Positions 34,101 through 57,419 of a DNA stretch of 64,000 nt are shown here, one piece after another. Positions within the stretch are counted from its first letter, which is position 1. The number at the start of each line of letters is the position of its first letter. This DNA is from Cyanophora paradoxa CCMP329. Its lineage: Eukaryota; Plantae; Glaucophyta. The notes below the pieces were generated by a model. That model searched no databases and was not told where the DNA came from. It worked only from the letters and a program-made list of their open reading frames with translations. A program made the position numbers and the translations under genes. The DNA is taken from NCBI GenBank assembly GCA_004431415.1, contig QPMI01000003.1:168791-232790 (forward strand), in the 5' to 3' direction.

Positions 34101-34114
34101 TGTCTTTGCCTTGA
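28101..34114 (+). CDS. pol: Pol polyprotein (protease, RT, RNase H, integrase with GPY/F module)
   Basis: ALIDSGA; SPWAFPVV..KKDG..RFCVDYR; YLDD; QTDAC..TDH..ADVISR; integrase H..H..YWP..C..C, WQMD, CDQG, LER. Frame is open from 28101. The terminal GPYIV...VHVSRLRPF lies in a shifted frame (33944-34114) after an A-run. Confidence 0.93.
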
Positions 34115-34155
34115 GGCGTACCCGGTTTGCTTTTTAAGCGTCGAGGTCGACGCTT

Positions 34156-34169
34156 GGTGGAGGCCGGCA
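34156..34169 (+). other. Putative polypurine tract of the Gypsy element
   Basis: Purine-rich GGTGGAGGCCGGCA immediately 5' of the 3' LTR. Confidence 0.55.
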
Positions 34170-36683: not shown

Positions 36684-36726
36684 CCTCTTTATAAACAAAG
36701 AAGATATATAAGAAGTATATAAGATA

Positions 36727-38220: not shown

Positions 38221-38227
38221 ACAGCGC

Positions 38228-39073
38228 TTAATCCGTGATCACTTCCAGCTGAAACGAGTATGAGAGACCGTTTATATCTGCAACAGATCCCCGCCATTTT
38301 CGAAGCGAAATTGTGAGACGATCTAAATCGAGTTGCGATGTGACATTTACGAAAGGGATGCTTGCGCTCGGTTCGTGGTAAAAGGAATATCTACCAAAGT
38401 CCGAGTTCATCTGAATTCGCAATAGATAGGAGTCGTCGAAATTGTTCTGTCTCCCAGTAACCGCTGCGAATTTGGTAAACGGGCGGAGCTCTTCGATATC
38501 AAGGTAAATATATGGAATTGCATTAAAGTCGACCATTTTCGGGCATATAATCGCGTAGCGACTGGGGTAATCTCTGAGTGGAACCGGCACTGGTTCTGGT
38601 GTGCTGGCGTAAACCACTCCGGGTTCTATGCCGAGACAGTCACAGAACTCCTGGTCTGAGGACTCTAATGTAAAAGGGCTATTCGGAGATGAGAACACGA
38701 AGCGGTTCGTAGAGAGAGCGAGAGAATAGGAGACCGGGAAGAGACCGAGTGGATTAAAAGAACCGCCCGCAAATCCGAGTAAAGCATCACTGTTTAGAGC
38801 TCTCTCTTTCGGATATCGTTCGTTATCAGCATCGACGTAATAATAATCGTTTACGCTGGGAATCGGTGCTATCATTTTGGATGCGGGGATTACTGTGGGC
38901 TCTTCGTTCAAAAACGTTATAGTTATTGTCTGATCGGGCGGAACAACATAAGAGCTATTGGGAATCTCAGCGGATAGCACACGAAATCGTCGTACATTAT
39001 TAAGGCGCGTTTTCAAGTGCAGCACGCCGTTTTCAAGGTCTCTACTGTCGCAATTTATTGTTATTCTTTTCAT
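38228..39073 (-). CDS. Minor capsid (penton) protein 1
   Basis: ITINCDSRD...LNNVRRFRVLSAEIPNSSY, YIYLDI, LDRLTISLR..G...DING.SYSFQLEV: single-jelly-roll penton signature of PLVs/NCLDVs. Confidence 0.82.
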   Translation of the reverse strand: MKRITINCDSRDLENGVLHLKTRLNNVRRFRVLSAEIPNSSYVVPPDQTITITFLNEEPTVIPASKMIAPIPSVNDYYYVDADNERYPKERALNSDALLGFAGGSFNPLGLFPVSYSLALSTNRFVFSSPNSPFTLESSDQEFCDCLGIEPGVVYASTPEPVPVPLRDYPSRYAIICPKMVDFNAIPYIYLDIEELRPFTKFAAVTGRQNNFDDSYLLRIQMNSDFGRYSFYHEPSASIPFVNVTSQLDLDRLTISLRKWRGSVADINGLSYSFQLEVITD

Positions 39074-39089
39074 AATCTATTATAGTAAG

Positions 39090-40016
39090 ATGAAAGAATA
39101 CCTGAGCTTTTCGAGCGATGATCGCGACGAGGAGTTTACACAGCCAAACCAGTATGTAGTGACATTACCCCGTCGCTATGACAACGTAAAATCGGTGCGC
39201 CTGGTGCAGGCAACGGTTCCCAATGTTCTTTCGACCGTGACAAATGATATAGACGCCACTGGTGCAACCATCGAGCGCATGGAACTCTATTTCTCGGTCA
39301 CAGCTTCGGATTCCGGATTCGTGACCATCACAATCCCCAAAGGATTTTACACCAAAGACGACCTTGCCGCAAAAGTCACAGAAAGACTCGAAGCAGCTCG
39401 CCTTTCAGATTTCGGTGGAAAATATATTAAATGCCGCTATAATACTACTTCAAAGATCTATGAGTTTTTCAGTGATAGTAACTTTTGGTTCAAGTTCTCC
39501 AAAGCTTCCCCTGAAACACTCAGAAAATCCAGTAACCGCAAAGCAATCGCTAAGAAACTCGCAATATTCGGTTTCAAAGATATTCAGCTATATGTTTACG
39601 AGACATTTACCCCTCTTGCAAGCGATACATTCCTTGTGTTTAATCCTGGGACGGGAACTGTGACACTCAATCGACGCATTCGCGGCTATACTCGTGGAGA
39701 TGAGACCCCGGCGGCGATGATCTGGCTATATATTGACGAATTTGCGCCGTTTATTCGCTCAGTCAACAAGCACGTCGATGGTTATTTCATGCGCATTCCA
39801 ATCCCACAGGAACTCGAACATGGTGATATCTACCACTTCGACACGTCCACTACGGTGCCTCTCATTCGTGAATTCCGCGAATTAAAATCGTTCGACCGCT
39901 TGACGATTAAACTCATCGACCATGATGGCGCTCTCTTAGATTTCGGGGTTTGGGCGCATTATTTCACTTTTGAAATCGAAACCTACGACGCACCGCCCGA
40001 AATGAATTTCTACTAA
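39090..40016 (+). CDS. Minor capsid (penton) protein 2
   Basis: LSFSSDDRD...PNQYVVTLPRRYDNVKSVRLVQATVPN, IWLYID, FDRLTIKLIDHDG.LLDFG..HYFTFEI; ATG at 39090. Confidence 0.82.
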   Translation: MKEYLSFSSDDRDEEFTQPNQYVVTLPRRYDNVKSVRLVQATVPNVLSTVTNDIDATGATIERMELYFSVTASDSGFVTITIPKGFYTKDDLAAKVTERLEAARLSDFGGKYIKCRYNTTSKIYEFFSDSNFWFKFSKASPETLRKSSNRKAIAKKLAIFGFKDIQLYVYETFTPLASDTFLVFNPGTGTVTLNRRIRGYTRGDETPAAMIWLYIDEFAPFIRSVNKHVDGYFMRIPIPQELEHGDIYHFDTSTTVPLIREFRELKSFDRLTIKLIDHDGALLDFGVWAHYFTFEIETYDAPPEMNFY

Positions 40017-40063
40017 GCCCTTTAAATTATTTTCTGATCCCAAAGATAAGAGAAGAAACGCTC

Positions 40064-41376
40064 ATGGAGACTAACAGCCAATTCCAGCGCCCAACGCTGA
40101 AATCTATGCTCACCACCGATGACTACAAGGATTATTTCCTAAACAAGTCGCTGGTCATTGGAACGTCCTCTGGCACTAAGCCACTTCGAGTTCTGGTCGC
40201 CCCGATACCGAACCAACCAATGCCCTCGGTAACCGAGTAGTTTTCAAAATCCCCCGCTACCATTTCCTGAATGGTCTCGCGCTGCAACTCGATCTAAACC
40301 CGATCACCCTCACTGATCTCACGAATGGTGTCGCTGGAACTACTGGCTACCTTCGCGTCATTGGATCGCTGATTAAGCGCATCGAAATCTCTCACGCTTC
40401 ATTCCGCTATGTTGTACCGGAAGATTTCGTCACCCAGTATTTTCTACTGATGACTGAACAGGGCGAACTCGATAAGAAACTTCGCTATGTCGGTGGTCTT
40501 GTCGGAACCGCTGGTAACACTGTCGGTGGAACCTACGAAATCGATTTACCCTCTCCTTTCGAGAAGGCGATGTTCCCACTTTGCGCTCTGAACTCTGAGA
40601 TCACAGTGGAAATCGAATTCAAGGCGCAAGGGGATGGTATCATTGAGGATGTGAATAATGTTGCTAATATTGCGGTAACCAACAATGGCGCTTCCCTTCA
40701 AGTGCTGAAACCCCGCGTTATTTGCAAGGTTGTAAACGCCGATGAGGCGGTTGTATCGGAGACCATTGCCCGTGTTAAATCGACTGGCATCGCGATCCCC
40801 TACAACGAAATCGGTTTCCTACACACAGATTTCCAGCCGACCGCCTCCGGTTCGCGAGTCAATCTCTCGCAACTCACAGGTGCGGGTCTCATCCACACTC
40901 TCGTATTCTCTGTGCGCCAAAACGCGAAGACGAAGGTTAACAACGGAACTCTCTCGGTTCTGGCTCCTCGTGCACTCAGAACCAACGCCGTAAGCTTCTA
41001 TGTGGAACTCAACAATAACCGCCTTTACTCAAATACTTCGCTTCCTCTCATGATTGCCGCGACCGAACTTCAAGATAAATATAATTCGGCGATCTTTACC
41101 GAGAGCACAAGCTACCCCGCTCTCACTGGCATTTACTTCGGTGCTGGAAACGGAAAGGCGTCGCTTCTAAACCAAGAGAACACGGGCTACATCGATGCCA
41201 CAGGCACATCGGCGTTCGATCTGGTCTTCGAATTCAACGGTGTCACAACGGCAGCCGAAGGTTCATCAGAATGGTATGCATCATCGGCATATCAGAAGAT
41301 GCAAATTCAGTGCATTGCCCTCGCCCACAACATCATGATAATTTCCGCCGACGGAATCCGAAGAGTATCCGCATGA
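40064..41376 (+). CDS. Major capsid protein (double-jelly-roll type, about 437 aa; one frameshift in a C-run near 40200)
   Basis: ATG at 40064; adding one C gives LVAPDTEPTNALGNRVVFKIPRYHFLNGLALQLDL, continuous with ORF 40450-41376 (FPLCALNSEITVEIEF). Beta-strand-rich; lies between the pentons and the ATPase. Confidence 0.75.
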
Positions 41377-41491
41377 TTACCATATTCAGTCTCATTTTTA
41401 CAACATTTTCATCGTTTTGGAAATTTCCAGTAAGAGATACCCACAAAAAGCATTTAAAGACAAGCCAACAATCAGTATATTAAGAAACAAG

Positions 41492-42438
41492 ATGACTCCC
41501 GCTCTGACTCACGATCAATTCGTATCTCGGTCTCAGGAAAGATTCCCAGGTAAATTTGCATATGAGAAGGCGAAGTATAAAACATACTGCTTCGACAAGG
41601 TCACTTTGATTTGTCTGACATGTAACACAGAATTCGAATGTCTGCCTTCAAACCATTTGAAAAAAGGTGGATATGGAGGATGTCCCCAATGTTGCAAGGA
41701 CATGCTCCACAAAGAAAGAGCCACTCCAAAAGACGTGTTTTTGGAACAGGCTCGATCAGCTCATGGAGACCTATATGATTATGACTTGACGAATTACAGA
41801 AACTGTCGATCTAAGATTTCTATTCACTGCAAACAGTGCGGGCACGACTTTGAGAAGACTGTGTGTGAGGTTGTGCGAAGCGAAGGATGCCCGAAATGTA
41901 GTTTCAAAGCGAGATGCAAGAAAAGAAGTAAGCCACTCGATATATTTTTGAACGAAGTCAGTGAAGTTCATGGAGATCTTTATGACTATTCAGAGACAGA
42001 ATACACAAACAAACGCACACCAGTTACCATTAAATGCAAGAAATGTAGCTCAAAGTTTTCATGCCTACCACAGAATCATCTACGGGGGACTGGTTGCCCC
42101 CGCTGCAAATTTTCGAAAGGAGAAATTGCCGTTGAACAAGTCTTGAAGTCTTTGGAGCTTACATTTAAACAACAGCACCGTTTCGCGAACTGCAAAAATA
42201 AAAACACGCTACCTTTCGACTTTTACATTCCTTCATTGAAGATTGCAATCGAGTATGATGGGCGCTTGCATTATGAGCCGGTCGATCACTTTGGGGTCAG
42301 GAAAGATTAGATACGATTCGGCTTCACGATGGAATAAAGAACCGCTACTGCGAAGCTAACAATATTAAGCTCCTCCGCATACCATACACTGAAACTGATA
42401 TTAAAGGTTGCATTGAGCGCTTCCTCTCATCGCTCTAA
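41492..42438 (+). CDS. Homing-endonuclease-like protein: repeated zinc-ribbon modules plus Vsr/PD-(D/E)xK-like nuclease
   Basis: Three HG.YDY...C..C...F....H..G.GCP.C-type repeats; LPFDFYIPSLKIAIEYDGRLHY; after a shift near 42295, HDGIKNRYCEANNIKLLRIPY. Confidence 0.8.
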
Positions 42439-42483
42439 TTACCACAGTCAGTCTTATTTTTCTATTGTTTTTATAGTGAAAGA

Positions 42484-43350
42484 ATGCAAAAAGGGACGAC
42501 GCCCATGGATCTCGAAGAATGGAACCCGAAACAGAGGGTGAAACTTCCCGCACGATTTCTCCTATTGGCGAAAACCAATTGTGGTAAATCGGTTTTCTTA
42601 AAGTGGCTGATCAAAGAACTCGAAGATCAGATCTCGTATGTTCTGGTTTTCTGTCCTACGAGTTTCAACGGTTTCTGGGGACAAATTACAGACGAAGTGC
42701 ATGACACCTGGAAACCGGAATATGTAGAGTCGATCATAGAAGCCCGCAAAAAAGCCATCATCGCGGGTAAGAAACCAAAGAATATTCTCATCGTACTCGA
42801 CGATTGTTTGGAGTCCGGAACTATCGATCTTTCGCGCGATCATTTGCTAAATAAATTGATGGCGCAAGGTCGTCATACGTTTTGTTCCGTGGCGCTAATA
42901 TCGCAGAAACTAACAAAGCTTTCAACGATCATTCGCAGCAATGCGGAGTATATCATATTCCTCAGCTGGTCAAACATGCGAGAGTTTGAAGCATATCACG
43001 AAGAGTTCGGGAACATGGATAAAGAGAGTTTCAAGCGCATGTTCCAAGAATTCTGTCATAGCTACCAAGCGATCATTCACGATAATACCGGGTATTCTGT
43101 GCGATGGTGGGTCGAAAAAGCCGATATGATCGATGACCATCCGTTTACTAAATTCCACAAGCGGGCGGCTTTTGAAGAAAAGAAGCGCAAACAACAAGAA
43201 GAGCAAGCAACAAAACCGCCGCCTGTCAAAGATTCGACAACTGTATGCAAAACTTTATCCAAATTTGAGCGTGAGCTTGAAGGTATCCCCAAACTTTCCC
43301 AAATTTCGCCTAAGAAAAAGAAAATGTTAATCAAATGTAAGAGAAGATAA
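42484..43350 (+). CDS. A32/FtsK-HerA-like genome packaging ATPase
   Basis: Walker A AKTNCGKS, Walker B ILIVLDDC, QGRH and ISQ motifs, IIRSNAEY. Confidence 0.9.
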   Translation: MQKGTTPMDLEEWNPKQRVKLPARFLLLAKTNCGKSVFLKWLIKELEDQISYVLVFCPTSFNGFWGQITDEVHDTWKPEYVESIIEARKKAIIAGKKPKNILIVLDDCLESGTIDLSRDHLLNKLMAQGRHTFCSVALISQKLTKLSTIIRSNAEYIIFLSWSNMREFEAYHEEFGNMDKESFKRMFQEFCHSYQAIIHDNTGYSVRWWVEKADMIDDHPFTKFHKRAAFEEKKRKQQEEQATKPPPVKDSTTVCKTLSKFERELEGIPKLSQISPKKKKMLIKCKRR

Positions 43351-43352
43351 TC

Positions 43353-44036
43353 ATGGTCTACCGAAAGAAGCCTCAAACCCTACAAGCGGTCGCCTCTGGT
43401 AACCCAAATCGCGGACTTGAAGAGTCTGGATTAACGTCGGGTGGCGGTCTCGAAATGCCCGAATATCTTATAGACACTTCGCCAGAAGAGGTCGCCAAGC
43501 AAGAGGCGATTATTGCGAGTGCCACCGCGGACAAGGGAAACCAAGATAGCGGTAAACGCCAAATGGAGGATTTAGCTACTGTAAAACCACAGATTGGAGG
43601 CGGCTCCATCGATGAAGCAACCGACAAAGTACTAAAAGCGCAAGTTGTCGCAAGCCAGCACAAAACGCAAGACGTCCCAAAAGCCGCCGAAACTGAGCTT
43701 AAAAAGCGCGGATCCTATCAAAAACACACGGTTCCTGTCGACGTTGTCATGAGCTTTGAAGAGAAAGTGCGAGACCTTGAAATGAAAGTGTCAAACTACG
43801 AGAAATGGATGCAAGATTATAACGAACGCAAGAAATTAAAGGGGCTCGTGAAGAAAGAGATCTCCAAACTCGGATTAAAGCAAAAAGTCGACGTAGAGGA
43901 GATTAAAAAGGAGGAAAAAACAGATGCACAAGCCGTAACTCGTCAGCAATCGGTTGCCCCGCAATATGCACATATAGTGCCGACAGCACCAGCGAATTTC
44001 GCGGCAATGCTCGGTGGTAAACGCCATATCCGCTAA
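43353..44036 (+). CDS. Hypothetical viral protein, charged with coiled coil
   Basis: ATG ORF packed 2 bp after the ATPase; K/E-rich heptads. Confidence 0.65.
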   Translation: MVYRKKPQTLQAVASGNPNRGLEESGLTSGGGLEMPEYLIDTSPEEVAKQEAIIASATADKGNQDSGKRQMEDLATVKPQIGGGSIDEATDKVLKAQVVASQHKTQDVPKAAETELKKRGSYQKHTVPVDVVMSFEEKVRDLEMKVSNYEKWMQDYNERKKLKGLVKKEISKLGLKQKVDVEEIKKEEKTDAQAVTRQQSVAPQYAHIVPTAPANFAAMLGGKRHIR

Positions 44037-44235
44037 TGGCTGTGAATATCCGCAAGGCAAAGCTGAACCCGCCCGTATTTAGAGCGGGTCTTTATGTGGA
44101 CTCCCTTGCAATAGGGACAGGTCGGCTCGGTAAACAACATGATAAGGTCGACTAAATCATAAGGAAACACACGAGCAAGTAACAGCCTCATTTCCTGTTA
44201 CCATAGGATTATTTTATTGCGACTCTTTATAGAAG

Positions 44236-44631
44236 ATGAACTTTATCAGTCAGTGCATTGAAATGTTTCAGCTTCATGTAGTGTCTAATTGCCACAGCCC
44301 TTGCTGTGACACGACCGTAGAAATTGAAATATCGGATGGCGAAGACAATGGGGGTCGTCGCTTATCTGTTATTTCGAACACTGACACGAACGCCCCGCCA
44401 AGATCGCGAAGGGGGTCGCCTGTGCCCGCGGCTATGAGTTCCAATATCGAATCCGCTCAGATAGAGGACGTAAACGTAGAGTATATTAGAAGGCGCTCAT
44501 GTCCTGAGATATTGGGTGGGCATTTTCGCGCTGATTCCCCTTATCCGATGCTCACCCTCGATGGAATGGCTTCGGGCAACGATGGAAATTACGAATACGT
44601 GGAGCCGCAACCTGTCTGGAACGATTATTAA
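44236..44631 (+). CDS. Small Cys-cluster protein (paralog of 58223-58486)
   Basis: MNFISQCIEMFQLHVVSNCHSPCCDTTVEIEISD aligns with MDLLRKCMDMFHLNVTSKLNCSCCETTINLEISD. Confidence 0.7.
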   Translation: MNFISQCIEMFQLHVVSNCHSPCCDTTVEIEISDGEDNGGRRLSVISNTDTNAPPRSRRGSPVPAAMSSNIESAQIEDVNVEYIRRRSCPEILGGHFRADSPYPMLTLDGMASGNDGNYEYVEPQPVWNDY

Positions 44632-44733
44632 AGATCGATCCGAGGGCAAAAATTGAAGGTTTCGGTAAAAGGTATTTAAGGGCAAGAGAAATAATACAGA
44701 GTGACAAAAAACTATTTTCTCCGGTTATAGTAA

Positions 44734-45147
44734 ATGGCGAAACCCAAGATTTCAAACCAAGAGGCGATGGCGGCACAGCAGGAAAAGCGCAGACCCGGGC
44801 GACCGAAAAAGGTGATTTCAGAAGAGGAGAAGGCGGAGAGATTAAGACTAAAACGCGAAAAAGACGCCGAGCGGCAGCGAAACAAGCATCAGAGACAGAA
44901 ACAGGAGCGATTAGCCGCCGGAGAGGCTACTATATTCACACCGGAACAGCTACAAAAGATTGCAATTCGTAAACAGCAGCGATACCAAGACGATGAAGAG
45001 TATCGGGAGAAAATCCGAGAGAAGGCACGTGAATACCAACGAAGGAAAAGAGCGGAACGCAAGCTGAACCCACCCGCTAAACCTCAGCCGCAAAAGCCCG
45101 CTGGGAGACCCCGAAAGCATGTCGTCGAGAACGCGAAAAATTCGTAG
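44734..45147 (+). CDS. Basic putative DNA-binding protein with two AT-hook-like motifs
   Basis: RRPGRPKK and PAGRPRK flanking a K/R/E-rich helix; preceded by the viral promoter-like motif. Confidence 0.68.
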   Translation: MAKPKISNQEAMAAQQEKRRPGRPKKVISEEEKAERLRLKREKDAERQRNKHQRQKQERLAAGEATIFTPEQLQKIAIRKQQRYQDDEEYREKIREKAREYQRRKRAERKLNPPAKPQPQKPAGRPRKHVVENAKNS

Positions 45148-45169
45148 CGAAAAGTACCGCACGATGCAA

Positions 45170-48100
45170 GATAAAATCTCTTGCATTAGCACACAACACA
45201 ACTACAATGAGTTTCACATCGCCCAATAAATCTCTCCGACTAGATACTATCGAGGACCGTCGTATGCTGTGCTTTAGAAAGTACAAAATGAACGAAAGGT
45301 TTGAAGGTTTCGTGTCTAGATATCTAGCTAAGGAGGTTTCTAACTAATACTAATGATGTGGAAGCTAGCTGTATCGATTTCTAAACCAACCTAAACTCCC
45401 GGCTACGAGGTCCTATCTCTACAAAAGACTCCCAATCATGGTATGTCCGCCGCCAGCGCTGCCCAAGGGCCTCGCCGCGCCGTGTGCCAGGCTCCTCGCC
45501 AGCCCCAGTAGATTGGGCTACTGGCCGCCTCCTGCCGTCGCCTCCGCCGCCTCCATTTGTTGGTGTTGCGTCCTCCGGCCCCGCCCCCAGACCGCAATCC
45601 CCCAGTGTCTCCCTCTAGCGCGGGCGCGCCCTCTGTGTGCCCACGCCCCAAGCATACCTGTTCGTATGGTCGTATACTTGCATGGCCGCTGAAGCCCGGA
45701 CCCAGCCGTAGTCGTCTGGCGGGCAGCTCAGGTGTGAGAGGGCTAGGGTTTCCCCGCCTTGGTGGCGGGACTCGAGGGCACCGCACTCCCTGCAGCGTTC
45801 CCGCTGCCGGGGCTCCGGATCCGCGCGCTTCCTGCGAGCGTTGCCAGCCGTATCGTCAGGCGGCGCGTCGGCCTCGCGCCCGCGCGCCTCAGTGCGCTTC
45901 GCCTTGGCGCGACGTTCTTTCATGACCTTCGTGATCCCGCACGCCTTCTCCCACTCCGCGTACGCCTGGCATCTGGCGGCCCACGTTTTATGGGCCTGCT
46001 CGCCTATGGCCGTCGTCAGCTTGCGCACGACCTGGGCAGCTTTCTTGGCGTCCGTGACGGTCTCGCGAATCATATCGGTGAGGCCTGCCGGGGCAGCCCC
46101 CGTAGCACGCACATCTGCGCCTGCCGTTCAGCTGCCGTGAGCGTCGGGTCGTTTACTCTCGTGACCTTCAGGGAGCTGGAGAGCGCGTGTGGCACTGACC
46201 GCTTCTGCGCGCCTTCGAGGGCCTCGCTGACCGTCGCTGCGATGCGTGCTTCCGCAGCGGTGCGCGCCTCCGTCGCCACCGCGCTGGGGCAGGTGAGGAC
46301 GTGCTCCAGCGTCTCCTCGGGCCCAGTCACAAGCTGGGGCCGGCCGTCGCCATCGATTTCCCGTGTGCTGCAGAGCGCACAGAGTCCTGCCGGGTTCACT
46401 TCGCTGTAGAGCTCGGGCGCGTCTCGCTTGCGGACGAGGGCCGTCGCCACCGTACCCAAAACGAGTTTCATGTGCGTACCCCGGAAGCAGTTGCTCTCTC
46501 GGCTCACTCCGACTCGGCGGGGCCCCATAGCCATCTGATCGTATACTGCGCCGTGATCCACTGGCAGCCGTAGCCACTCCCCGGCCTTGAGCTGGTTCGC
46601 CCACGCGAAGTGCGTGTGGTGCGCGTGAAGCACAGCGGCGTGCCGCCGAGGGTCGCCTTCGACTCGCCTGACTATCCCGGTCGGTCCCTCGATCGTCAGC
46701 ACTGCCGGCATGCTGAACTCGGGCGGCAGGAAGATGTTCTCGTCCAGTTCCTCCTGTTCCAGGTGCGCGCCTTGATCGGCCGCTCTGTCGGCGGCGTCGT
46801 TTAGCTCGTGCATATCCTCGTCGCTGTGCGCCTTGACCTTGATAACCGCAGCCGGCCGCTGCCGATCCCGTCCCATCACCAGGGCGCGGAACTTGGACCA
46901 CGCGTACAGCTCAGCGCTGCACGTGTTCCGGATGTAGTCTCGCATGTGCATATCGTGCACATTCAGCACGAACTTATCGAACCACGTGCAGACGTTCTGA
47001 CTGTCCGTGTGCAGGCGCACCCCCTGCGCCGCGAGCACGTCGGCGACGATCGCAGCCTGGAGCTCAGCCTTGTTGTTCTCTTGAAGCCCGCGCAGCCTGC
47101 CAACGTACGTGCCTGCCCATTCCGGGTGGTTCGCCACGGTCCCGTCCGGGAACTCAGCCGGGCTCACGACGCCGAGGCCCGCGTGCGCCCCTTCCGTTTG
47201 ACCCTTCTTCAGGCTCCCGTCCGTCCATATCCACTGCTCGAGTTTCCCCGGGCGACGGCCGAGCTTCGCGAGTTCCGCCTCTTCGATCTGCTCCCAATTT
47301 GCCAGCATGTGCTGCCAGTAAACGGTGAGGGTGACCCCTTCCTGCGCCGCCCGGGAGTCCCAGTGGCGCGGCGCTCCGCCCGCGTAGTAGAGTTCGCTCT
47401 GCTCTGCTGAATCTGACACAGGTTGTGCCTCGTCCCGCGGCTCGGCGCCCGGCGTCGCCGCCGCAGCCACTTCCAGCGCGGCCTGCAGCTCAGCCTCGGC
47501 CTCCGGGCTCAGCTGTTCGCGGAGGAAGCGCTCGTCACCATCCTGTACGGCTTTCACGCGGGCCTGGAGAAGCAGCGCCCTGCGTTTCTCGTCGTCTTGC
47601 GTGCGCAGGCCCGGGTCGTAGTACTCCAAGGTCGGTCGCAGGGCGACCTGCTTGCGCCCGCGCTTCGACTTCGTCTCCTGACCCGCCGCTACCGCCGGCG
47701 TCTCCTCCGTCGGTTCGCCTTCCAAGGCGAGGAGGGTATCCTCCTCCTCCCACCAGCCCTTCCCGTGCGTCCACGAGCCGTCGCACTGACTCATTTCGGG
47801 GCAGCGCGATGGAGCATTGCGCGTGCACCGGTCGTCATGGTGCCAGTACTGCTTCCCTGTCCCCTGCACCGCCGTGTACGTGCTCGTCCGCCCCTCTATT
47901 TCGGGGTGCCGGCAGTGACCGTCGCACCGGCAGTAGAGTCCCTCTTTCTCCGCGTCGGGGTCCGCGCCCTTCGGCACCGGCACCCAGTGCTCCAGCAGGT
48001 ACTCCGACGCTAATATGCTGCCCGTCTCGGATTTGAACGTAACGACTCGCCCCACGTGGGGCTCGGCAGATTCATCGTGCAGTTGCTCCGCCTCAAATAC

Positions 48101-50088
48101 GGCTACGAACGCGTCCTTTGCCCACTTCACCTTCCGGGCCCCGCCAGGGAGCGAGGCCATGGCTGACGCGCGCTCTCCTGCCCGCCGCATCGGGTGCCGC
48201 AGCTGCTTCCCATCAACCGCGAGCGCGTTCGCTACCTCACGCCACCACGCAGGCTCGCTCTTCTGCAGCGTCCCCTTGGGCGCGCCCATGTACAGGTCCT
48301 GCCAGGTTCGCAGGGTCTCGCCGTCCGCTGCCGTCACCGCGTCCATGGTCGTCACGCCCGCCCCGTACAGGGCAGGGGCCGCGACGCTGAAGACGGATCT
48401 TGGGATGTGCATTGCCACGACGTAGCGCCGGTCGAGGCGCTCCGGGTCAGGCCAAGGCTCCGCCCCGGGCAAGGTGCGGAACGCCGCATAGCGCGCGTGA
48501 TTCGACATCAGCCGGTACTTACGGCGCTGCATTTGCGGCATGATCGCCGCCAGGGAGTTCCCGCGGGCGAGTTCGCTGGAGATGGGCGCGTTTAGGAACT
48601 CGGTCGGGAGCAGAGGCACCCCAAGCTTCTCCTGCAGTGCGCGCACCCGGTGCCGTACCCCCGAGCCAGCAGCGAGCCCTCGGGCGCGCAGAGCCGGATC
48701 TGAGCCTCTGTGATTTGCGCCTCCGCTTGCAGGTGGGCTGTTCGTTTGAGGCTGTACCCCCCGTGGCTCCAGATTGCGTAATTCGTCGTCGAGGCGGCGA
48801 GGTTCCCGTGGTGCTTGACGACCCTCATCCAAATACGATCGAGTTCCTGGCACTGACTCTCGCTCAGGGTCATGAGCTTCAGGCCGTACGAGATGCGGGC
48901 CTGCACTACGGCCTCGACAAGGTAGCAGGCCTCGTTCGCGGTGAGCTTCTTGCGTTCTATCAGCGCGACTGCGCCCCGCGCCTGATCGCAGATGTACTGC
49001 CACTGACGATCCCAGTTCAGGTTTGCGCTCATGTATACCCCGAGGAGCTTGAAGTGCTCTTGGGGCTGGCGGACAAGTCCGACGGGGGTACCGTTGATCT
49101 TCGGCGGGGAGGGCTGCTTCTCCTTCTTCTTCGCGGCGGGGTGGGCCCCAGGTTTGCTCTCAACTTCGCGACGTGCGTTGTTCCACGTGAAGATCGTCTT
49201 CTTCGCGTTGACCTCGATATCGTGCAGGCGGAAGAACTCGCCGGCCACGTCGGCCTGGGCCTGTAGCCCCGCATGCTTCCGCTCATCCACTTCGTGTCAT
49301 CGGCGTACGCCACGCCGCTGACGCGGGCCCGGCCCTCGCGTTCCGCAGCATCGGTCTCCCTCGGGTTCCCCATCACGTACGCCGTGCCCGGCTCCTCCCA
49401 GCTCTCGGGGTGGGCATAGTGCTCTATCGTCTTTGCCGTCTTCTTTCCGTGCTGGCGCTCGTGCTGATCCAGGCGCTCTTGCGCGCAGAGGAGGGCATCG
49501 TAGAAGATCAGCCAGTGCAGCGGCGACTCGACACCGCCCTGCGGCAGCCCGCACTCGAGCTCGAACTCGTCGGAGAGGCCGTGACCGGAGATTGCCCGCG
49601 CCCTGCGGCGCCGGAATATGTTCCTGTGGAGCTCGATGTACCCCTCGGGTACGTTCAGCCTCCGCATCGAGAGCTCCATGCTCTCCCACGAGACGGAGTC
49701 GTACGCTCGCCTGATATCCTGCAGCAGGATGTACAGGGGCTTCTTGAACTCCTTCGCGTCCTCGAGGACTGCGTTAAAGACGTGGAGGGCGTCGTCCGTC
49801 GAGCAACCAGGTCTGAAGCCGTAGTTGGCTCCTTTCAGGAGCCCGTTCTGATGGATTGTCCGGGACAGGCGCGCGTTCAGGAGGCCAGTGGTCAGCTTCA
49901 AGGCCACCTCCTGCAGGGTGATCGGTCGCAGGTTATTTTCGATATCCCCGTCCCACTCCCGGCTCTTAGTAATGCCGAGAATGTTGCCCTGACACACGGC
50001 ATCCGGCAGGTCCCGGAGGCGGATCGCTTCAGCCACCAGCGAGAGCAGCAGCTTCCGGCCCCAGTGTACGGGCTCCTCTTCCGTGGCC
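45170..50088 (-). mobile_element. LINE-B: 5'-truncated non-LTR retrotransposon related to LINE-A (4919 bp)
   Basis: 18-bp TSD AAGTACCGCACGATGCAA at 45152-45169 and 50089-50106; begins just upstream of the RT domain; GC-rich island inside the virus. Confidence 0.93.
45615..50088 (-). CDS. LINE-B truncated polyprotein: RT, RNase H, zinc knuckle (frameshifted)
   Basis: LRPITLQE, QDIRRAYDSV, GLPQGGVESP, YADD, FKLLGV, WTDGS, NKAELQA, HTDS, KVKAH, CALC...ETLEHVLTCP. Confidence 0.9.
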
Positions 50089-50210
50089 AAGTACCGCACG
50101 ATGCAAAAAATGATTAATTTTTTACCTCCCTTTTTATTCCCCGTATAGGTCAAAAAAGCACTTAAAGAATTGGCGACAAGGGTATGAAAAGGAGAATTTG
50201 GTAGATTGCG

Positions 50211-50230
50211 CCGAAATTATTTTCTCCGGT
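50211..50230 (+). promoter_or_regulatory. Conserved upstream motif CCGAAATTATTTTCTCCGGT
   Basis: Identical 20-mer at 55976-55995; partial copies at 44713-44727 and 40024-40035; each lies within about 45 nt of a viral ATG. Confidence 0.7.
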
Positions 50231-50252
50231 TATTTTAAAAGAACTAATAGAG

Positions 50253-53200
50253 ATGCCGCGCGCAACCAACAGAATCGCTAACAATGTTCGGGACGAAATT
50301 ATCGGATACATTATGCAGGGATTGAGTCAGGATTTGCTAACCGAAGAACAGGCGCATTGGGCGATGCACAACACAATGAATCGGAAGCCCAAGCTCCAAA
50401 CGCTGATAGATATTCGGGATACTCTGAATGGAATCATTAATCCCCGCGTTTTCCGCAGGGCAGAGCGGAAAGAGAAGCGCGCCGCTCGCACCCAAGTAAA
50501 TATAGAAAAGCAAAAGCAAAAAGAACAAGAGGCTAAGCGTTTACAGCGTTTCGATCGCAAGCAAGAAAAGAAGCGGGCGAAAGAAGCGAAGCTTGAAGCG
50601 AAGCAACAGAAAGGCAAACTAAAAGCGGTAGAGGATGCGATTAAACGCACTATTCTCGATCCAATCGCCCAATATGATCCGGAAACTCTCGCGACAGTTA
50701 CGTTCAAGATGTGGGCACCTGGATCCGGTGCTCGGTCTTCGGAGGTAATTGTTATTCCCGGAATTCCCGAATTAAATATACCAGACAGTTCCTTTGTCAC
50801 CTACCGCAATATAAGAGAGACAGTTTCGGTGAGTGTGTTGCGAAGCTTTGCTCTGGCGAAAATGGATAGAATGTCTCAAATTCTAATTAGACCGGGTCAA
50901 GTTCGTCATGATTGGCATGAGAGCGAATCAATCTTCTATTTACTCAAAAACTACGATGAATTGGCAGTAGGACTTAAAACTTTCGGCGAAGCATACGAGG
51001 TGTTCTTCTTTAAGACACCACCAACCGAGGAACAGAAAAGACTACGCCTAATGTTTGATGATTTTGGCGGCAGTATCGATGATGCCTTTATAACTGTTCA
51101 TGAGGTCGCGATCGATGGGGACGAAGGTGTCGAGGACGATGGAGCCGGTGCTATTCCTGGAAATCGCTATGAGTTCCTGGATGAGGAGCTAATGGACAGC
51201 ATGCGATGCACCGCGATTATGAGCAAATTCACAGACTACACATTAAATCCAAACGCGTCTGAGTTCGAAGATGTTATTGAGCTTCCCAAATCATCGACAT
51301 CTAACGCTTGCGGCTATGATATGATCATCTCCACATGGGGAGCGTCCATTAAAAAGTGTCAGGAGGCGCCGAAACCGCGATATACTGACTTTACTATGTC
51401 ATACGACGGTCTCTATAAATTCTTTCACGGTCGCGAACGCACACCTGGCGACTCTCTGGCTCTCACCCTCCGCCATATTGAGAAATTCTGTCAGAGAATT
51501 CAGACAGGCTTCCGCGTCTTTGATGTCGACGGAAAGTTAATATACAAATTCGTGGCAGAATCGATTAACAAAAACATCTTTCCCCGCAATATTCACTTTA
51601 TGATTCACAACAAGCATATCTATATATTCAACGATAACATCAAGTCGCTCGAAATGCGCATGGCGAAGATGGAGGTCGAAGAGCTTGACTGTCATGTTCC
51701 CAAGTCGACCTCATCGTTAGCACTCTACAAAATTCCGACTTGTCTGACTCACGATATCTTTGCGCACACATCCAAGGATTTGTTAAAGATCACGCAATTA
51801 AAACTATCGCCCGACGAGCGCAGTTTCATCCGCATTCTTTATACTGGGCGCGAAGGTCTGGAAGGTCTTCTATTTACGTTCCTGAAAATGCGATATGAGC
51901 CCGCTGTGAAGCTAACACCATCGAAGCAGATCGACAGCATCACATTCAAAGCTAATGGCTCGATGTTCTCTATCAAAGACCCACGCACAACCGACCACTT
52001 CATTGAGCAAGATTTCGAAACAGAGGAGTATTATAATAAGGTCTGTGAAATCGGTAAGGGGTTCCGGGAGTCGCTTCTAAATCCGACGAATATCTCACAT
52101 TACAGCCCGAACATGCGCGAAATTCTCACGCACTACAAGCGATCCGCACTAAGCGGCTTTTTCTATAAGCCGAACCCGAAAGCCACCTACACAGCTGTCG
52201 ATATGGCGAAGTGCTACCCTTCGATACTGAAAGGCATGCAATATCTTCCGAAATACAATGTGTTTGATGACTTCGTTCCCTTTAAAGCGGGAAGCGATAT
52301 TCTCGAATACGCGATCTACTACGTGCGTGTCGTTGCGTTTGAGAGAGAGCAAGCGACTTTCGCCGACGATGAGGATGTAGATTATGATGCCGCCATGTCT
52401 CGCAAGATTGATGGAATCGAAATTATTCTGGATCGCGCATTTTCCGTGAGTGGTCGTTGCTATAATTTCATGACAGGCTACACTCTCGCCATGCATTGGG
52501 CGGACGTAAAGGACAAGATAGAGATCATTGCGGTCGCGGAGCCTTCGCATTTGGTGCCCAATACGTCGATCGCTGAGATGAAGAAAGTACTTTCAAGTGA
52601 CATTCAAACCACGGACAAGAAACACATTTTAGTGAAAGAGATCGGAATGCTCGGCAAATTCCAAGACTTGCAAACGTCCACGAAAATGTTCTACAACCGT
52701 GCCGAAGCTGAGAGGTTCGCCAAAGAATGCGGAGGAACAGTGGAGGTGTTTACTTTCAATCCGAAGAATTCGAAACGTGTCAAAGCACTTAGCGAATTCG
52801 AAGGTCACATCTATTTTGTTAAGATCAGCTCTCACCGCGAGCTTGTTAACGGATTCCTTCCTATCCACTTTCAAATTTACGATCGCAACCGCGCTAATAT
52901 GTTTGCGCAATACAAGCGCCTGACAGCGCGCGGGCACAAGGTTGCGGGGATCAGAACGGACTGTCTATATATCGAAGGTTCATGGACGAGTAAAAAAGAG
53001 TTCGACCGAAATGCGTTTGAGAACATGGGCAAATTCAGCTATATTCCCGGGAAAAGATGCCCTGAAAACGCACTACGCCCGCCAAGGGGTGTAACTCTCG
53101 AATTTCAGGATCCCGATACGCTAATTAACCGGTTCTCGCTAAGGGATGAATTTAATCCTGAGTGCTTTAATCGGGTTGCGGAGCTTCATAATCGTATGCT

Positions 53201-54569
53201 TGTCCTTGCTGACATGCCCGGAAGTGGAAAGTCGACCCTCGGTATTAATTGCTTCGCCTCTCAGAAGTCGAATTGCTTAATTATCTGTCCCTATAACAAA
53301 CAGTGCGCAGAGCTTAGGGACTCTCTCAAAGCCCGCGGCATTGAGAATATCGTCGTTCGTACTTTGTATAATGTTCTCGGGATCCGTGTCTCAAATGATC
53401 AGACCTACGAAGAGGCTATGAGCGAAAAAGATCAGAGGGCGTTCGTCTCTGAGTTCAGCCATATAATGTTCGACGAGATATTCGCGTATTCCGTAAAGGA
53501 TCTCGCTAAGATCAAGACTTTCATAGACCGCTATCCGGATATCAAATATTTGGCTAATGGCGATACCTATCAAAACGAACCAATTAATGACGATCTCTCG
53601 GTTTCTGATCGCAAGGGCTACTATAAGCGCGCCGTGCAAAGCATGTTCCCTAACGTTCTGAGTCTACGCATTAACAAGCGGCACAAGAAGGAGACAGACC
53701 GTGAATTAATTCGGGCGATTAAAGAGGATCTCTTCGAAAACGGACTCGAAGCCGCTCAGATTATCTCGAAATATGGGTTGCCGACAATTAATGATCTAAG
53801 CGCTATTCCCGACGGCTACTTTGGCATCGCTTACAGAAACGAAATGACCTTAGCCTATAACAAACTGATGCACGATAGACGAAAAGTAAATATCGCAACC
53901 GTAGAGGTCAATGGCATCAAATTCTACAAGGGTTTGGAAGTCGTTTGTCGCAGGTATATGCGCATTTCGCGATCCGAAGGCGAGTCTGTTAATGCATACA
54001 CGAATTACACCTACCGGATCACCAAAATCACTAAGCAAATGGTCACATTAACTGACGTTTTCGATGGCGTCACGTTCGAGGTTCCGTGTGCGATGTTAGA
54101 ACATTTTTCTCTCCCTTATGCAGGAACAGGTCATTCAACGCAAGGTCTCACACTTGATTCGGGCATTGTCATTTGTGAGGCTACGTTCCGCTATACCACT
54201 CGCGAATGGTTCTATACCGCGCTCACTCGTAACCGCGATCTGTCTACTGTGCTGATTTATACACCGATTCACAAGTTCCAAGGAAAGCACGACTATATTG
54301 AATATCTGAAAGTGAAGATCCGCGGCTATAAATGTCAGGATCAGCGTGCCGGGCGCGATTTCGACGAAGCGGATTATATTACGCCGGAGTGGATATTAGA
54401 GCGCAAGAAGCAACAGAAGGGCGCCTGTGCGATCTGTTCCCTTCCTATTCCCACTGAGCCACAGGATCCGAATTACAAGCTCGTCGTGGATCGCATAAAC
54501 AACAGGCGCCCACACCTTAAAGACAATTGTCAGCTCGTGCATCACGGGTGCAATTGCAGCAAAAAATAA
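50253..54569 (+). CDS. Replication protein: derived family-B polymerase domain + SF1 helicase + C-terminal HNH/EndoVII-like zinc module
   Basis: PolB-like motifs VDMAKCYPSIL, KHILVKEIGMLGK, IRTDCLY. SF1 motifs DMPGSGKST, FDEI, GDTYQNEP, NKR, YAGTGHSTQGLT, YTALTR. C-terminus CAIC...VDRINNRRPHLKDNCQLVHHGCN. Confidence 0.85.
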   Translation: MPRATNRIANNVRDEIIGYIMQGLSQDLLTEEQAHWAMHNTMNRKPKLQTLIDIRDTLNGIINPRVFRRAERKEKRAARTQVNIEKQKQKEQEAKRLQRFDRKQEKKRAKEAKLEAKQQKGKLKAVEDAIKRTILDPIAQYDPETLATVTFKMWAPGSGARSSEVIVIPGIPELNIPDSSFVTYRNIRETVSVSVLRSFALAKMDRMSQILIRPGQVRHDWHESESIFYLLKNYDELAVGLKTFGEAYEVFFFKTPPTEEQKRLRLMFDDFGGSIDDAFITVHEVAIDGDEGVEDDGAGAIPGNRYEFLDEELMDSMRCTAIMSKFTDYTLNPNASEFEDVIELPKSSTSNACGYDMIISTWGASIKKCQEAPKPRYTDFTMSYDGLYKFFHGRERTPGDSLALTLRHIEKFCQRIQTGFRVFDVDGKLIYKFVAESINKNIFPRNIHFMIHNKHIYIFNDNIKSLEMRMAKMEVEELDCHVPKSTSSLALYKIPTCLTHDIFAHTSKDLLKITQLKLSPDERSFIRILYTGREGLEGLLFTFLKMRYEPAVKLTPSKQIDSITFKANGSMFSIKDPRTTDHFIEQDFETEEYYNKVCEIGKGFRESLLNPTNISHYSPNMREILTHYKRSALSGFFYKPNPKATYTAVDMAKCYPSILKGMQYLPKYNVFDDFVPFKAGSDILEYAIYYVRVVAFEREQATFADDEDVDYDAAMSRKIDGIEIILDRAFSVSGRCYNFMTGYTLAMHWADVKDKIEIIAVAEPSHLVPNTSIAEMKKVLSSDIQTTDKKHILVKEIGMLGKFQDLQTSTKMFYNRAEAERFAKECGGTVEVFTFNPKNSKRVKALSEFEGHIYFVKISSHRELVNGFLPIHFQIYDRNRANMFAQYKRLTARGHKVAGIRTDCLYIEGSWTSKKEFDRNAFENMGKFSYIPGKRCPENALRPPRGVTLEFQDPDTLINRFSLRDEFNPECFNRVAELHNRMLVLADMPGSGKSTLGINCFASQKSNCLIICPYNKQCAELRDSLKARGIENIVVRTLYNVLGIRVSNDQTYEEAMSEKDQRAFVSEFSHIMFDEIFAYSVKDLAKIKTFIDRYPDIKYLANGDTYQNEPINDDLSVSDRKGYYKRAVQSMFPNVLSLRINKRHKKETDRELIRAIKEDLFENGLEAAQIISKYGLPTINDLSAIPDGYFGIAYRNEMTLAYNKLMHDRRKVNIATVEVNGIKFYKGLEVVCRRYMRISRSEGESVNAYTNYTYRITKITKQMVTLTDVFDGVTFEVPCAMLEHFSLPYAGTGHSTQGLTLDSGIVICEATFRYTTREWFYTALTRNRDLSTVLIYTPIHKFQGKHDYIEYLKVKIRGYKCQDQRAGRDFDEADYITPEWILERKKQQKGACAICSLPIPTEPQDPNYKLVVDRINNRRPHLKDNCQLVHHGCNCSKK

Positions 54570-54587
54570 ACAGGTTTAATTAGAAGA

Positions 54588-55969
54588 ATGTCACGGATCG
54601 TCAGAAGGGTAGCGGGTGAGGAGACAGAGACTACCATACTCCCTATTGCGGTTCCTGAAACTGAGCTAATCCCCAAAAAATTACAAAACGCCAAGCAAAA
54701 TCAAATTTATTAGGAGATGTTACTTTTAGCATTGCTAACCCGTCCTCTAAGATCGTGCGACGCATGTATGACCCAAAGACAGGTTTTAAGAACCCATCGG
54801 CATTGTACGAAGAGCTGAGAAAAGAGGACAAGAGCCTCACACTGAAAGAAGTGCAAGATGTCGCAGCGAAACAAGAATTTATGCAGATCAACAAGAAGCC
54901 CCCCGCACCAACCCAAACCGCTTTTATTCCCATCACAGCCCCGCCGTGGTGTTACCAAGCGGATCTCATTTTTTATCTCTCATATGGCAATTATAATTCC
55001 GGCTACATTGCAGTCCTTACTCTCATCGAGATGACAAGCCGAAAAGCATATGCCAAGAAGTTAAAGAATAAGGAGGGCGCAAGTGTTGCCGCCGCTTTTG
55101 CGGAGATGCTCACAGAGCTCCCGGCTCCGATGATTCGATTGGAGACAGATAACGGTTCTGAATTCATCGCAAAGGAGTTTCAGGAGGTCGTCAAAAGCAA
55201 TGGAATAGAGCATCGCTTCAAGCAGGTCGGAGATCACACTTCGCTGGGAATTATGAATCGCTTTCATTTGACCCTAAAAACGATGATAAACAATTACTGT
55301 GTCGCATATAATACAGTGCGGTTCATGGACAAGCTGGACGACTTCGTTTTCAATTATAACAACACCGTTCACAGAACAATAGGAATGAAGCCCGCAGATG
55401 TTAAGCTCTCAGATATGGAGCGGATCCGCGCGGCTATTATTTCGAGAAAGAATACGATCGTCAAGGATATATTCAGCGACTTTAAACCGGGGCTCCACGT
55501 CCGCGTATTGTTGCCAAGATCAAAGTTCGATAAAGGAGCGACTCAAAGGTACAGCCGAGAGGTCTACAAAATTGCGGGAAGGAGAGGAAACGCGATAGAG
55601 GTGCAAGATGCAGCCGGGAACCTAATGCCGAAGCTTTTTAAACCGCACGAATTGCAGATCATTACAGAGGTCGAGGCTGTGGTGGAACCATCAGGCAACG
55701 CAATCAAAGCAGCCGAAATAGAAGCCGCTTCTATCCGGCAGGTTCAAAAAGAAGGCATAGATGTCGCCGCAAGTGTTCCGAAAGGGGCTCTATTGGAAGA
55801 TCGCGCGGAGAAGACGAAGAGGGCGCTTAGAGAGCTTGCAAAACTCACGATCGCGGGAACTGAGAAGCTCTCTGAGGTAAACAGTCAGCGGTGGTATAAA
55901 TCATTCAAGAATCAGAGCGCAAGCTATACAGCCCCTACTACGCGCATTCTTCGGTCATCTCGTTCATAA
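54588..55969 (+). CDS. Polinton-type retroviral-like (rve) integrase
   Basis: YQADL, LIEMTSRKAY, TDNGSEF, GIMNRFHLTLK, YNNTVHRTIGMKP, FDKG...YSREVYKI. Likely ATG at 54588 with one missing A in the run near 54675. Confidence 0.88.
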
Positions 55970-55975
55970 CAAACC

Positions 55976-55995
55976 CCGAAATTATTTTCTCCGGT
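55976..55995 (+). promoter_or_regulatory. Second exact copy of CCGAAATTATTTTCTCCGGT
   Basis: Ends 13 nt upstream of ATG 56009. Confidence 0.7.
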
Positions 55996-56008
55996 GAATA
56001 TAAAAGAG

Positions 56009-56321
56009 ATGGAGGGTGAAAAGCATTTCGTGGATATTCCCTATGATAAAAAGACGTTGCGAAATCCCTCGGTGAAAGTGGGATCGTGAGAATTCATGCT
56101 GGTATGTCACGAAGAAAGATCACCCGCTATGCTCTCAGTTCAAGACTCTAAGCTATGAGCAGGTGTATCAGAGAAACGTGAAGGTTTACCTCGATATTCC
56201 TTATGAATTTAAGGATCAAGCGAAGGCTGAGAGAGCCCGCTGGGATCCCGTTATGCGATGCTGGTATGTTATGGGTCTCGATCACCCGCTAATGGGCAAG
56301 TTTCCGATCAAGGAACACTAA
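56009..56321 (+). CDS. Small protein with two DUF5710-like repeats (frameshifted)
   Basis: FVDIPYDKK...KWDRENSCWYV and YLDIPYEFKDQAKAERARWDPVMRCWYV; not in the ORF track because of short indels. Confidence 0.68.
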
Positions 56322-56346
56322 ATGTATATGTCGCTTTCTTCATTTT

Positions 56347-56737
56347 TTATGAAATTGGGAACCTTTGCTCTACTTGTAAGTCCCACTTTCGAACTTTCAG
56401 CCTTTCTTGTATGAGTTCGTTAATGTCCCGTGCTATACCCATTGTCTTCGCTTCGGCATTTGAGCCGCATGTAAAGATATCGATCGCTAATAGCCCCTGT
56501 CGCTATAAGAGTGAGCTGTGGCATGCGACTCATCTAATAGAAAGCCAATCGCGAAACCGGGAGGGGAATTAGAGCCGTCAAAATGCATGTGTGCTGGTGC
56601 ACGATGCGCATCTTGCGATCTGTTATATATTGCGACAGGTTCGCTGTGATCCACTCGGCGCATGCCTCCGGGGACTCGGTGAACGGGTCGGTTATATAGT
56701 CAAGCATGACGTGGTAGCCGCGGTATTTGGAATCCAT
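56347..56737 (-). CDS. speD: Prokaryotic-type S-adenosylmethionine decarboxylase proenzyme (about 130 aa; two single-base homopolymer shifts)
   Basis: Restored: MDSKYRGYHVMLDY...MRIVHQHTCIFDGSNSPPGFAIGFLLDESHATAHSYSDRGLLAIDIFTCGSN...QRFPIS*; ESH self-cleavage motif and DIFTCG. Confidence 0.85.
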
Positions 56738-57190
56738 TATTATTTAAGTCGATATTTTTGTGAGCTATGAGCTGTGTGTGCTTTTGTAGCGCCAAATCGC
56801 GCCCTTTGCGAATCCGACCGCGCCGCTTTGTAACAGTGTAGAACTACTCTATACCCACACGGATGCAAAGTATGACTAGTGGAGCCTCATGGGAACGCGC
56901 GCCGGCGCTCAGAATGTAGCGGACACCTCGGTTTTCGGGCACTTGTGCAGAAATCGACGCCGGTCTTTGCTCCACGGTGGGCTAAGCTAGTCAAAGCATA
57001 ACCATCATGCCCGGAAGCAAGTTATGAGCACGTAGCAATTGAGAGCGCGCCGAGATCAGCTTCCTGTCCAAAGTTATGCGGGGAAAACGGAAGGGGGGGT
57101 CGCCGCCGAGTCGCGATCGCCAACATTTGACGGCGGCTATTATACTTCTAACTGAGCATTTGAAAGGTATAACAGACCTACTGTAAGGCT

Positions 57191-57398
57191 TAGTTTCGGC
57201 GTAATGTCGGCTGACAGGGTGATAGTTTCGGCGTAATGTCGGCTGACAGGGTGATAGTTTCGGCGTAATGTCGGCTGACAGGGTGATAGTTTCGGCGTAA
57301 TGTCGGCTGACAGGGTGATAGTTTCGGCGTAATGTCGGCTGACAGGGTGATAGTTTCGGCGTAATGTCGGCTGACAGGGTGATAGTTTCGGCGTAATG
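57191..57398. repeat. Perfect 32-bp tandem repeat, 6.5 copies
   Basis: Unit TAGTTTCGGCGTAATGTCGGCTGACAGGGTGA at 57191, 57223, 57255, 57287, 57319, 57351, and partial at 57383; no spacers. Confidence 0.97.
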
Positions 57399-57419
57399 AA
57401 AAAACGAGAGAGAGCCCAC

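Follow-up and report, generated by a model that had tools for sequence, protein, structure and literature searches.

A pyruvoyl-dependent decarboxylase gene, likely of the arginine type, in an integrated Polinton-like virus of Cyanophora paradoxa

An integrated Polinton-like virus (PLV) in the DNA of Cyanophora paradoxa carries a gene of the short, class 1b S-adenosylmethionine decarboxylase (AdoMetDC) fold. It is probable that this gene, which is under selection, encodes a self-cleaving pyruvoyl proenzyme that likely converts L-arginine, and not S-adenosylmethionine (SAM), to agmatine, from which the host would make polyamines. All coordinates given below are positions in the window, i.e., the whole stretch of 64,000 nt that was analysed.

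The decarboxylase gene and its fold

In a six-frame translation, the gene appears on the minus strand as three successive pieces, 56737-56582 (containing G.H...D), 56579-56499 (LLDESHATAH) and 56496-56350 (IDIFTCG). The pieces are mutually out of frame, and one base is missing at each junction. An earlier reading, made from the sequence alone, had proposed that two one-base restorations yield a protein of 130 residues. This was borne out, except that the extra base at the second break lies beside the 4-nt run named in that reading and not within it. The features of the gene are as follows.

56347..56737, minus strand: gene for a pyruvoyl-dependent decarboxylase of the class 1b AdoMetDC fold and SpeDA type (likely an arginine decarboxylase), read as 130 residues with X at the two breaks
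56579..56582, minus strand: frame break 1 (~56580), one base fewer than in short-read contigs
56526..56528, minus strand: codon of Ser71, predicted self-cleavage and pyruvoyl site (Glu-Ser), equivalent to T. maritima S63 (from the alignment and PMC10407285)
56511..56513, minus strand: codon of His76, equivalent to T. maritima H68; S-Y-S-D follows where T-W-P-E is expected
56496..56499, minus strand: frame break 2 (~56498), one base fewer than in short-read contigs
56467..56469, minus strand: codon of Cys91, equivalent to T. maritima C83

The Pfam AdoMet_dc profile (PF02675) was matched by pieces 2 and 3 with 15.6 bits each, over adjacent stretches of the profile (44-69 and 67-106). Singly, each of these scores is below the cut-off of 25 bits, and piece 1 had no Pfam match. 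PHROGs and NCBIfam likewise gave weak AdoMetDC-family matches for the pieces. A clade profile was then made from 40 intact members that pass the Pfam cut-off, starting from an intact 125-aa homolog on the viral contig L003, which was one of the two loci found when viral contigs were scanned with a degenerate motif. On this profile, the gene read through with X at both breaks scored 109.7 bits, while the best of 1000 shuffles scored 4.8. Scored separately, pieces 1, 2 and 3 gave 29.0, 32.8 and 26.0 bits and matched in order. Alignment to the Thermotoga and Aquifex chains placed S71, H76 and C91 at T. maritima positions 63, 68 and 83. Membership in the short, prokaryotic-type pyruvoyl decarboxylase family, as first proposed from the letters, is supported by the clade-profile score and by these catalytic residues.

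The predicted structure of the closest intact homolog, P0187 (a model of that protein and not of the window protein), has a pLDDT of 91.5. Its best Foldseek matches are 2iii, 1vr7 and 1tlu, which are the AdoMetDCs of Aquifex and Thermotoga (E 3e-8, TM 0.75). The class 1b AdoMetDC-fold gene at 56347-56737 is real.

A comparison of piece 1 with longer proteins gave two candidates, neither of which was significant. Relatives of piece 3, of the protein P0305 and of the capsid ORF were sought in the viral contigs and none were found, and blastn against phages returned chance matches only.

Frame breaks and selection

Twenty public runs from the same organism each cover part of the window, none of them more than half of its words, and six DNA-type short-read runs were aligned to it. 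At break 2, the extra base is listed in all six of these runs, at a share of the depth that ranges from roughly half to the whole. At break 1, the inserted base is listed in one of the six (X16), and five of the six show loose contig ends, which in the four that could be counted carry one base more than the window does; no row for X1 is among those listed. Of the 10 copy-to-copy variants listed within the decarboxylase gene, all fall on third codon positions and nine are synonymous, and in the integrase 12 of the 13 listed are synonymous. Since short-read contigs carry an extra base at both breaks (at break 1 mostly by loose ends) and the differences are almost all synonymous, both breaks are likely assembly errors, as had been suspected from the sequence. 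The gene is under selection, as nine of its 10 listed differences are synonymous.

It is unlikely that this genomic copy is a decayed pseudogene, with two breaks that are real here while other copies are intact. Such decay would suit an element into which two retroelements have been inserted and which shows frame breaks elsewhere too. The gene is spanned by no single contig, so a real break in this copy is possible; moreover, a fraction of the depth at the breaks is without the extra base, and none of the six runs is known to be from the source strain. The direction of the errors speaks against decay. Among the differences listed, the six single-base indels at 54670, 56047, 56073, 56498, 56579 and 56789 are all bases missing from the window, with one difference in the opposite direction (56334, in one run), and the almost wholly synonymous substitutions complete the pattern expected of uncorrected long-read errors. 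Gaps that run mostly in one direction, accompanied by clean substitutions, are in keeping with long-read errors in an element of many copies, and the artificial fragmentation of high-copy PLVs has been described (PMC10120064).

The summed contig depth of the element is in the thousands in all runs, a figure taken without a single-copy control and hence not a copy number. Two possible RNA runs (X20, with three contigs at a depth of ~2, and X24, with none) are uninformative both ways.

The Polinton-like virus

The decarboxylase gene lies near the integrase, between a DUF5710 gene and a 32-nt tandem array. In summed contig depth it is similar to the integrase, which places it inside the element. 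The features of the element are listed below.

18550..57400, no strand: host-integrated PLV-like element, approximate extent, ends taken from the GC shift and repeats
24618..35131, plus strand: LTR retrotransposon nested in the virus, with 962-nt LTRs 99.8% identical and gag-pol-like ORFs; we take it to be Ty3/Gypsy
36727..38220, plus strand: patatin-like lipase (PF01734, 78.3 bits)
38228..40016, no strand: two divergent genes, probable minor capsid (penton) proteins, labelled from position and resemblance, with no profile above cut-off
40450..41376, plus strand: likely major capsid protein, C-terminal part; the reading seems to start upstream, in other frames
42484..43350, plus strand: A32-type packaging ATPase (PF04665, 41.3 bits)
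45152..50106, minus strand: nested GC-rich retroelement with RT and RNase H, inserted in the virus and showing an 18-nt target-site duplication (45152 and 50089)
50253..54569, plus strand: 1438-aa replication protein with an SF1/Dda-like helicase and a C-terminal endonuclease VII-like domain (profile matches)
54764..55969, plus strand: rve-type integrase (PF00665, 52 bits); true start probably upstream (one-base gap near 54670)
56008..56321, plus strand: DUF5710 gene (PF18974, 45.8 bits), convergent with the decarboxylase
57191..57398, plus strand: array of 32-nt tandem repeats at the element's right end; a related second element begins beyond

Without its two nested retroelements, the element measures ~23.4 kb. 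Its GC content is 0.42-0.52, against 0.61-0.76 outside, with a drop to about 0.42-0.49 at ~18.55 kb. With its A32 ATPase, rve integrase and 23.4-kb low-GC insertion, the element is PLV-like, and the sequence-only reading was right in placing the gene within such an element of ~23 kb. Fibre-like C1q genes are also present. The capsid candidate showed an Atlas feature match of 0.98 to viral clusters, some of them Capsid_NCLDV/Capsid_N, but this is a lead only, as Capsid_NCLDV occurs in 13-18% of the members of those clusters, a low recognition value; Pfam and PHROG gave no match for 40450..41376. The DUF5710 gene, like the decarboxylase, has two single-base gaps relative to the short-read contigs.

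No profile match to a protein-primed DNA polymerase B (pPolB) was found in the 1438-aa protein, which matched helicase and endonuclease profiles only. Neither Pfam nor PHROGs matched its N-terminal 950 residues, which possibly hold a divergent polymerase-like domain. A search for terminal inverted repeats (TIRs) between the presumed ends of the element found none; such repeats are reported from only 47% of such elements (PMC10120064). The element contains no agmatinase or other downstream enzyme. A small integrating virus can accommodate some 20 genes, and a metabolic gene among them had been called unexpected. That surprise has lessened, as auxiliary metabolic genes in PLVs have been described (bioRxiv 10.64898/2026.05.28.728513) and the same enzyme clade is found on other PLV-like contigs (see below).

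Several further observations concern the surrounding DNA. The second, related element at 57400-64000 has C1q and other fibre-like genes and a small ORF in common with 19.4-22 kb and carries, at 58223-58486, a homolog of ORF 44236-44631, in a different gene order; repeats of ~57 nt and ~252 nt mark its start. An A/T-rich motif with the core TTTTCTCCGG is found at 44706, 50211 and 55976, 10-35 nt upstream of the genes at 44734, 50253 and 56008, and nowhere else beyond 18 kb. It is a candidate early promoter and is not upstream of the decarboxylase. The GC-rich endonuclease-RT-RNase H retroelement exists in two copies, at 3943-9658 in host DNA and at 45170-50088 in the virus, which are 71-78% alike in stretches. 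The patatin lipase at 36727-38220 has a C-terminal extension of ~170 aa and is divergent from a fibre-like gene. The CpG observed/expected ratio is ~1.2-1.3 around the decarboxylase and in the element core and is lower in the fibre-gene arms (0.81 at 18550-24617 and 0.69 at 57400-64000).

Origin, spread among viruses and proposed role

In a tree of 58 rows (LG+G4), a 100/99 branch set the WP-type rows apart from the window row, which fell together with Poseidoniales and planctomycete rows; forcing it to join the WP-type rows gave a tree that the AU test did not reject (p = 0.108). The closest protein is P0187, which is 44-47% identical to the window protein (BLAST, tree alignment), and the Poseidoniales homologs are ~40% identical. 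The near relatives of P0187 lie on contigs L073-L075 with Erv1 and RNase III, and an NCLDV capsid is found on L075. The window row groups with these rows (94/86) inside a eukaryote-type group that includes a chrysophyte (91/94), neither branch being starred.

Among 53 viral loci, six that are small-virus-like carry the SpeDA-type clade (L003, L004, L005, L007, L028 and the doubtful L027). ATPase, penton-like and capsid-like genes accompany it on L003, L004, L005 and L007, and L028 is similar; L027 is doubtful because the available part of the contig contains no capsid. The last two contigs also hold a LicD-family gene (L028:9499-10092) and a deoxynucleoside kinase (L027:12574-13179). Forcing the window row and four PLV-like rows into one clade was rejected (p = 0.0001), which implies at least two acquisitions. 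The same clade is present on the giant-virus contigs L073-L075, L006 and L025, and WP-type genes are present on others (L043, L050, L053 and L060). The element probably acquired its gene from a giant virus or a eukaryotic host, independently of the other PLV lineages with this clade.

In the mechanism that we propose, the proenzyme is predicted to cleave itself at Glu70-Ser71, giving the pyruvoyl cofactor, and the mature enzyme would decarboxylate L-arginine to agmatine. Its expression would be expected while the element is active. Agmatine would then be converted by enzymes of the host to putrescine and (homo)spermidine, and these polyamines may aid translation and DNA packing of the PLV or of a giant virus on which it may depend. 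A broader proposal is offered tentatively, as a possibility that we rate at somewhat under an even chance: PLVs would have captured pyruvoyl arginine decarboxylases repeatedly and independently from a giant-virus and protist pool, and the high-copy element would keep the gene as a one-gene lever on arginine and polyamines, possibly controlling the giant-virus infection that it needs.

It is quite unlikely that the arginine decarboxylase acts by interference, such that arginine use or agmatine build-up hampers a co-infecting giant virus and helps the many-copy host. PLVs have been proposed as antiviral elements (PMC12220804), the summed depth of this element is very high in all runs and no downstream enzyme is encoded in it. 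However, giant viruses themselves carry the same clade (the five contigs above), so that a supply role fits better, and the assayed members of the clade are slow, with kcat/Km of 20-180 per M per s (PMC10407285).

Substrate of the enzyme

Three sets of residues are informative about substrate according to PMC10407285. The catalytic S/H/C are found in all active homologs; a proline is kept in true AdoMetDCs and absent in arginine decarboxylases (SpeDA), which are little diverged from AdoMetDC; and Q/T/F/Y are found in the ornithine decarboxylases (SpeDC), which form a single separate clade. The alignment in Fig. S5 of that paper suggests that the diagnostic proline is the W-P proline. The window protein has Ser at this position (H-x-W-P is absent), and a comparison with SpeDC domains found none of the four SpeDC residues in it. 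With the catalytic S/H/C kept, the proline lost and the SpeDC residues absent, it follows the SpeDA pattern. The proline was found in 0 of the 203 sequences of a motif census, but this set was chosen by the clade profile, so the count is circular and does not serve as support.

The assayed SpeDA clade includes Poseidoniales, MG II/III, Gimesia, Solirubrobacter and the stramenopiles Nannochloropsis and Tribonema, and its assayed members acted on arginine at the rates given above and gave no spermidine rescue (PMC10407285). The window gene, read through with X, scored 97.9 bits on a profile of speY/speB-linked cellular proteins and 36.8 bits on a WP-type profile. For TIGR03330 (cut-off 75.65 bits), the pieces scored 13.3 and 18.7 bits and the closest homologs 45. 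One speY-linked Poseidoniales protein passes at 79.5, so this profile does not separate the substrates.

When GTDB was scanned with the clade profile, 17 loci were found, 14 from Poseidoniales-type archaea, two from other archaea and one from a planctomycete, which are lineages that the assayed SpeDA clade also comprises. The cellular relatives are arranged as speB-speDA-speY (confirmed with Pfam DS and Arginase), as in the assayed SpeDA lineages, and SpeY is known to couple agmatine (PMC13625781). The domain was found in 15 of the 17 GTDB and 77 of 80 metagenome loci; a speY and/or speB homolog lies within 3 kb in 86 of these 92, which are mostly from related marine archaea and are not independent. 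Three of the six loci without either gene are giant-virus contigs. When cluster members were listed for 10 Poseidoniales proteins, the assayed accessions DAC51064 and AIF02979 were not among them, so the link to the assayed SpeDA is made by taxon and gene order. A scan of 26 proteins or protein pieces from the window found no spermidine synthase, which agrees with the earlier remark that none is visible, and none was found among 43 neighbours of 13 loci or as a fused domain in 35 homologs.

The domains that are fused in these 35 homologs are DS (four, and one weak), an arginase-family domain (one), PQ-loop (three), NNMT-like (four) and SET (two). The PQ-loop membrane domain is joined to the SpeDA-type domain in P0134, P0147 and P0214. 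Some PQ-loop proteins carry cationic amino acids, and the fusions suggest a coupled unit of arginine transport and decarboxylation in protists. NNMT/PNMT-like methyltransferase fusions occur in P0138, P0185, P0192 and P0205, two of them with DS as well, which hints at an N-methylated polyamine pathway.

Judged by motif, clade, profile scores and the neighbours of its relatives, the substrate is likely L-arginine (SpeDA type) and not SAM. The sequence-only reading had named SAM and had added that some homologs use arginine or ornithine; it is this caveat, and not the primary assignment, that the evidence supports. A true AdoMetDC, which would supply decarboxylated SAM for spermidine or drain SAM and so weaken methylation-based silencing of the provirus, is very unlikely here. 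The enzyme does share the fold and Pfam family of AdoMetDC, class 1b AdoMetDCs are encoded by eukaryotic giant viruses (PMC9992855), the AU test leaves room for a placement beside WP-type rows, and six of the fusions listed above are to NNMT-like or SET domains. Against these points stand the absent WP proline, the score of 36.8 against 97.9 bits, relatives beside which no spermidine synthase was found in the loci and fusions scanned, and assayed clade members that acted on arginine and failed to restore spermidine (PMC10407285). The idea of a SAM drain loses its basis if arginine is the substrate, and the CpG ratio near the gene gives no sign of methylation-driven decay. An ornithine decarboxylase (SpeDC), or an enzyme for both ornithine and arginine that makes putrescine directly without host agmatinase, is highly improbable: a lone viral gene without agmatinase would be more useful in that form (an argument of PMC10407285), one phage enzyme takes both substrates (PMC9992855) and an end branch of 0.91 marks the window row as divergent, but all four diagnostic Q/T/F/Y residues are absent and SpeDC is reported as a separate clade (PMC10407285), with its rows outside this tree.

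Significance

That several PLV lineages carry this enzyme clade, acquired at least twice, suggests a limit set by polyamine supply on PLVs or on their giant-virus partners, and related genes in other small and giant viruses suggest a repeated pick-up of a polyamine-feeding route. There is also an annotation trap, as databases label the whole clade "S-adenosylmethionine decarboxylase"; with arginine indicated instead, the metabolic reading of these viruses changes. The protein is small, requires no cofactor from outside and can readily be assayed. If the proposal of repeated capture is true, this would be the first pyruvoyl arginine decarboxylase shown for PLVs and for eukaryotic viruses, and the first polyamine gene of a PLV.

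Comparison with known systems

The element resembles the endogenous PLVs with rve integrase described in PMC10120064 and PMC12220804 in being a low-GC insertion of 15-30 kb with capsid-like, ATPase, helicase, integrase and fibre-like genes and nested GC-rich retroelements. It differs from them in that neither TIRs nor pPolB was found, and the lack of a pPolB match also separates it from Maverick/Polinton elements (pPolB and rve).

The literature on Polintons, PLVs and virophages in combination with AdoMetDC, decarboxylases or polyamines, subscription journals being outside its scope, gave no report of the gene in PLVs. The word "decarboxylase" is absent from the main texts of PMC12220804, PMC10120064 and bioRxiv 10.64898/2026.05.28.728513, whose supplementary annotation tables may list the family, and "Polinton" is absent from PMC9992855. 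In PMC11633385, the only decarboxylase mentioned is that of phosphatidylserine. Pyruvoyl arginine decarboxylases are known from phages, prokaryotes and stramenopiles; the enzyme is thus of a known kind, and PLVs are the group for which no report was found.

The pyruvoyl arginine and ornithine decarboxylases of phages and the AdoMetDCs of giant viruses (PMC9992855) are likewise virus-encoded short AdoMetDC homologs and stand-alone polyamine genes. In that paper, however, the substrate-shifted enzymes are from tailed phages, whereas those tested from eukaryotic viruses (HaV01, YSLPV2) are true AdoMetDCs. The arginine decarboxylase of chlorovirus PBCV-1 (cited in PMC9992855) also takes arginine to agmatine in a eukaryotic DNA virus, but it is a PLP-dependent enzyme of the alanine-racemase fold, encoded by a giant virus with agmatine-converting enzymes alongside. 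The present gene differs from SpeDA as described in PMC10407285 in its setting, as it lies in an integrated small DNA virus, alone and without speY or speB. The predicted protein resembles SpeDA in its class 1b size and fold, the catalytic S/H/C and the lack of a WP proline, and it has the motif D-E-S-H-x-x-A-H-x-Y-S-D/E in common with the homologs of the Poseidoniales speB-speDA-speY arrangement.
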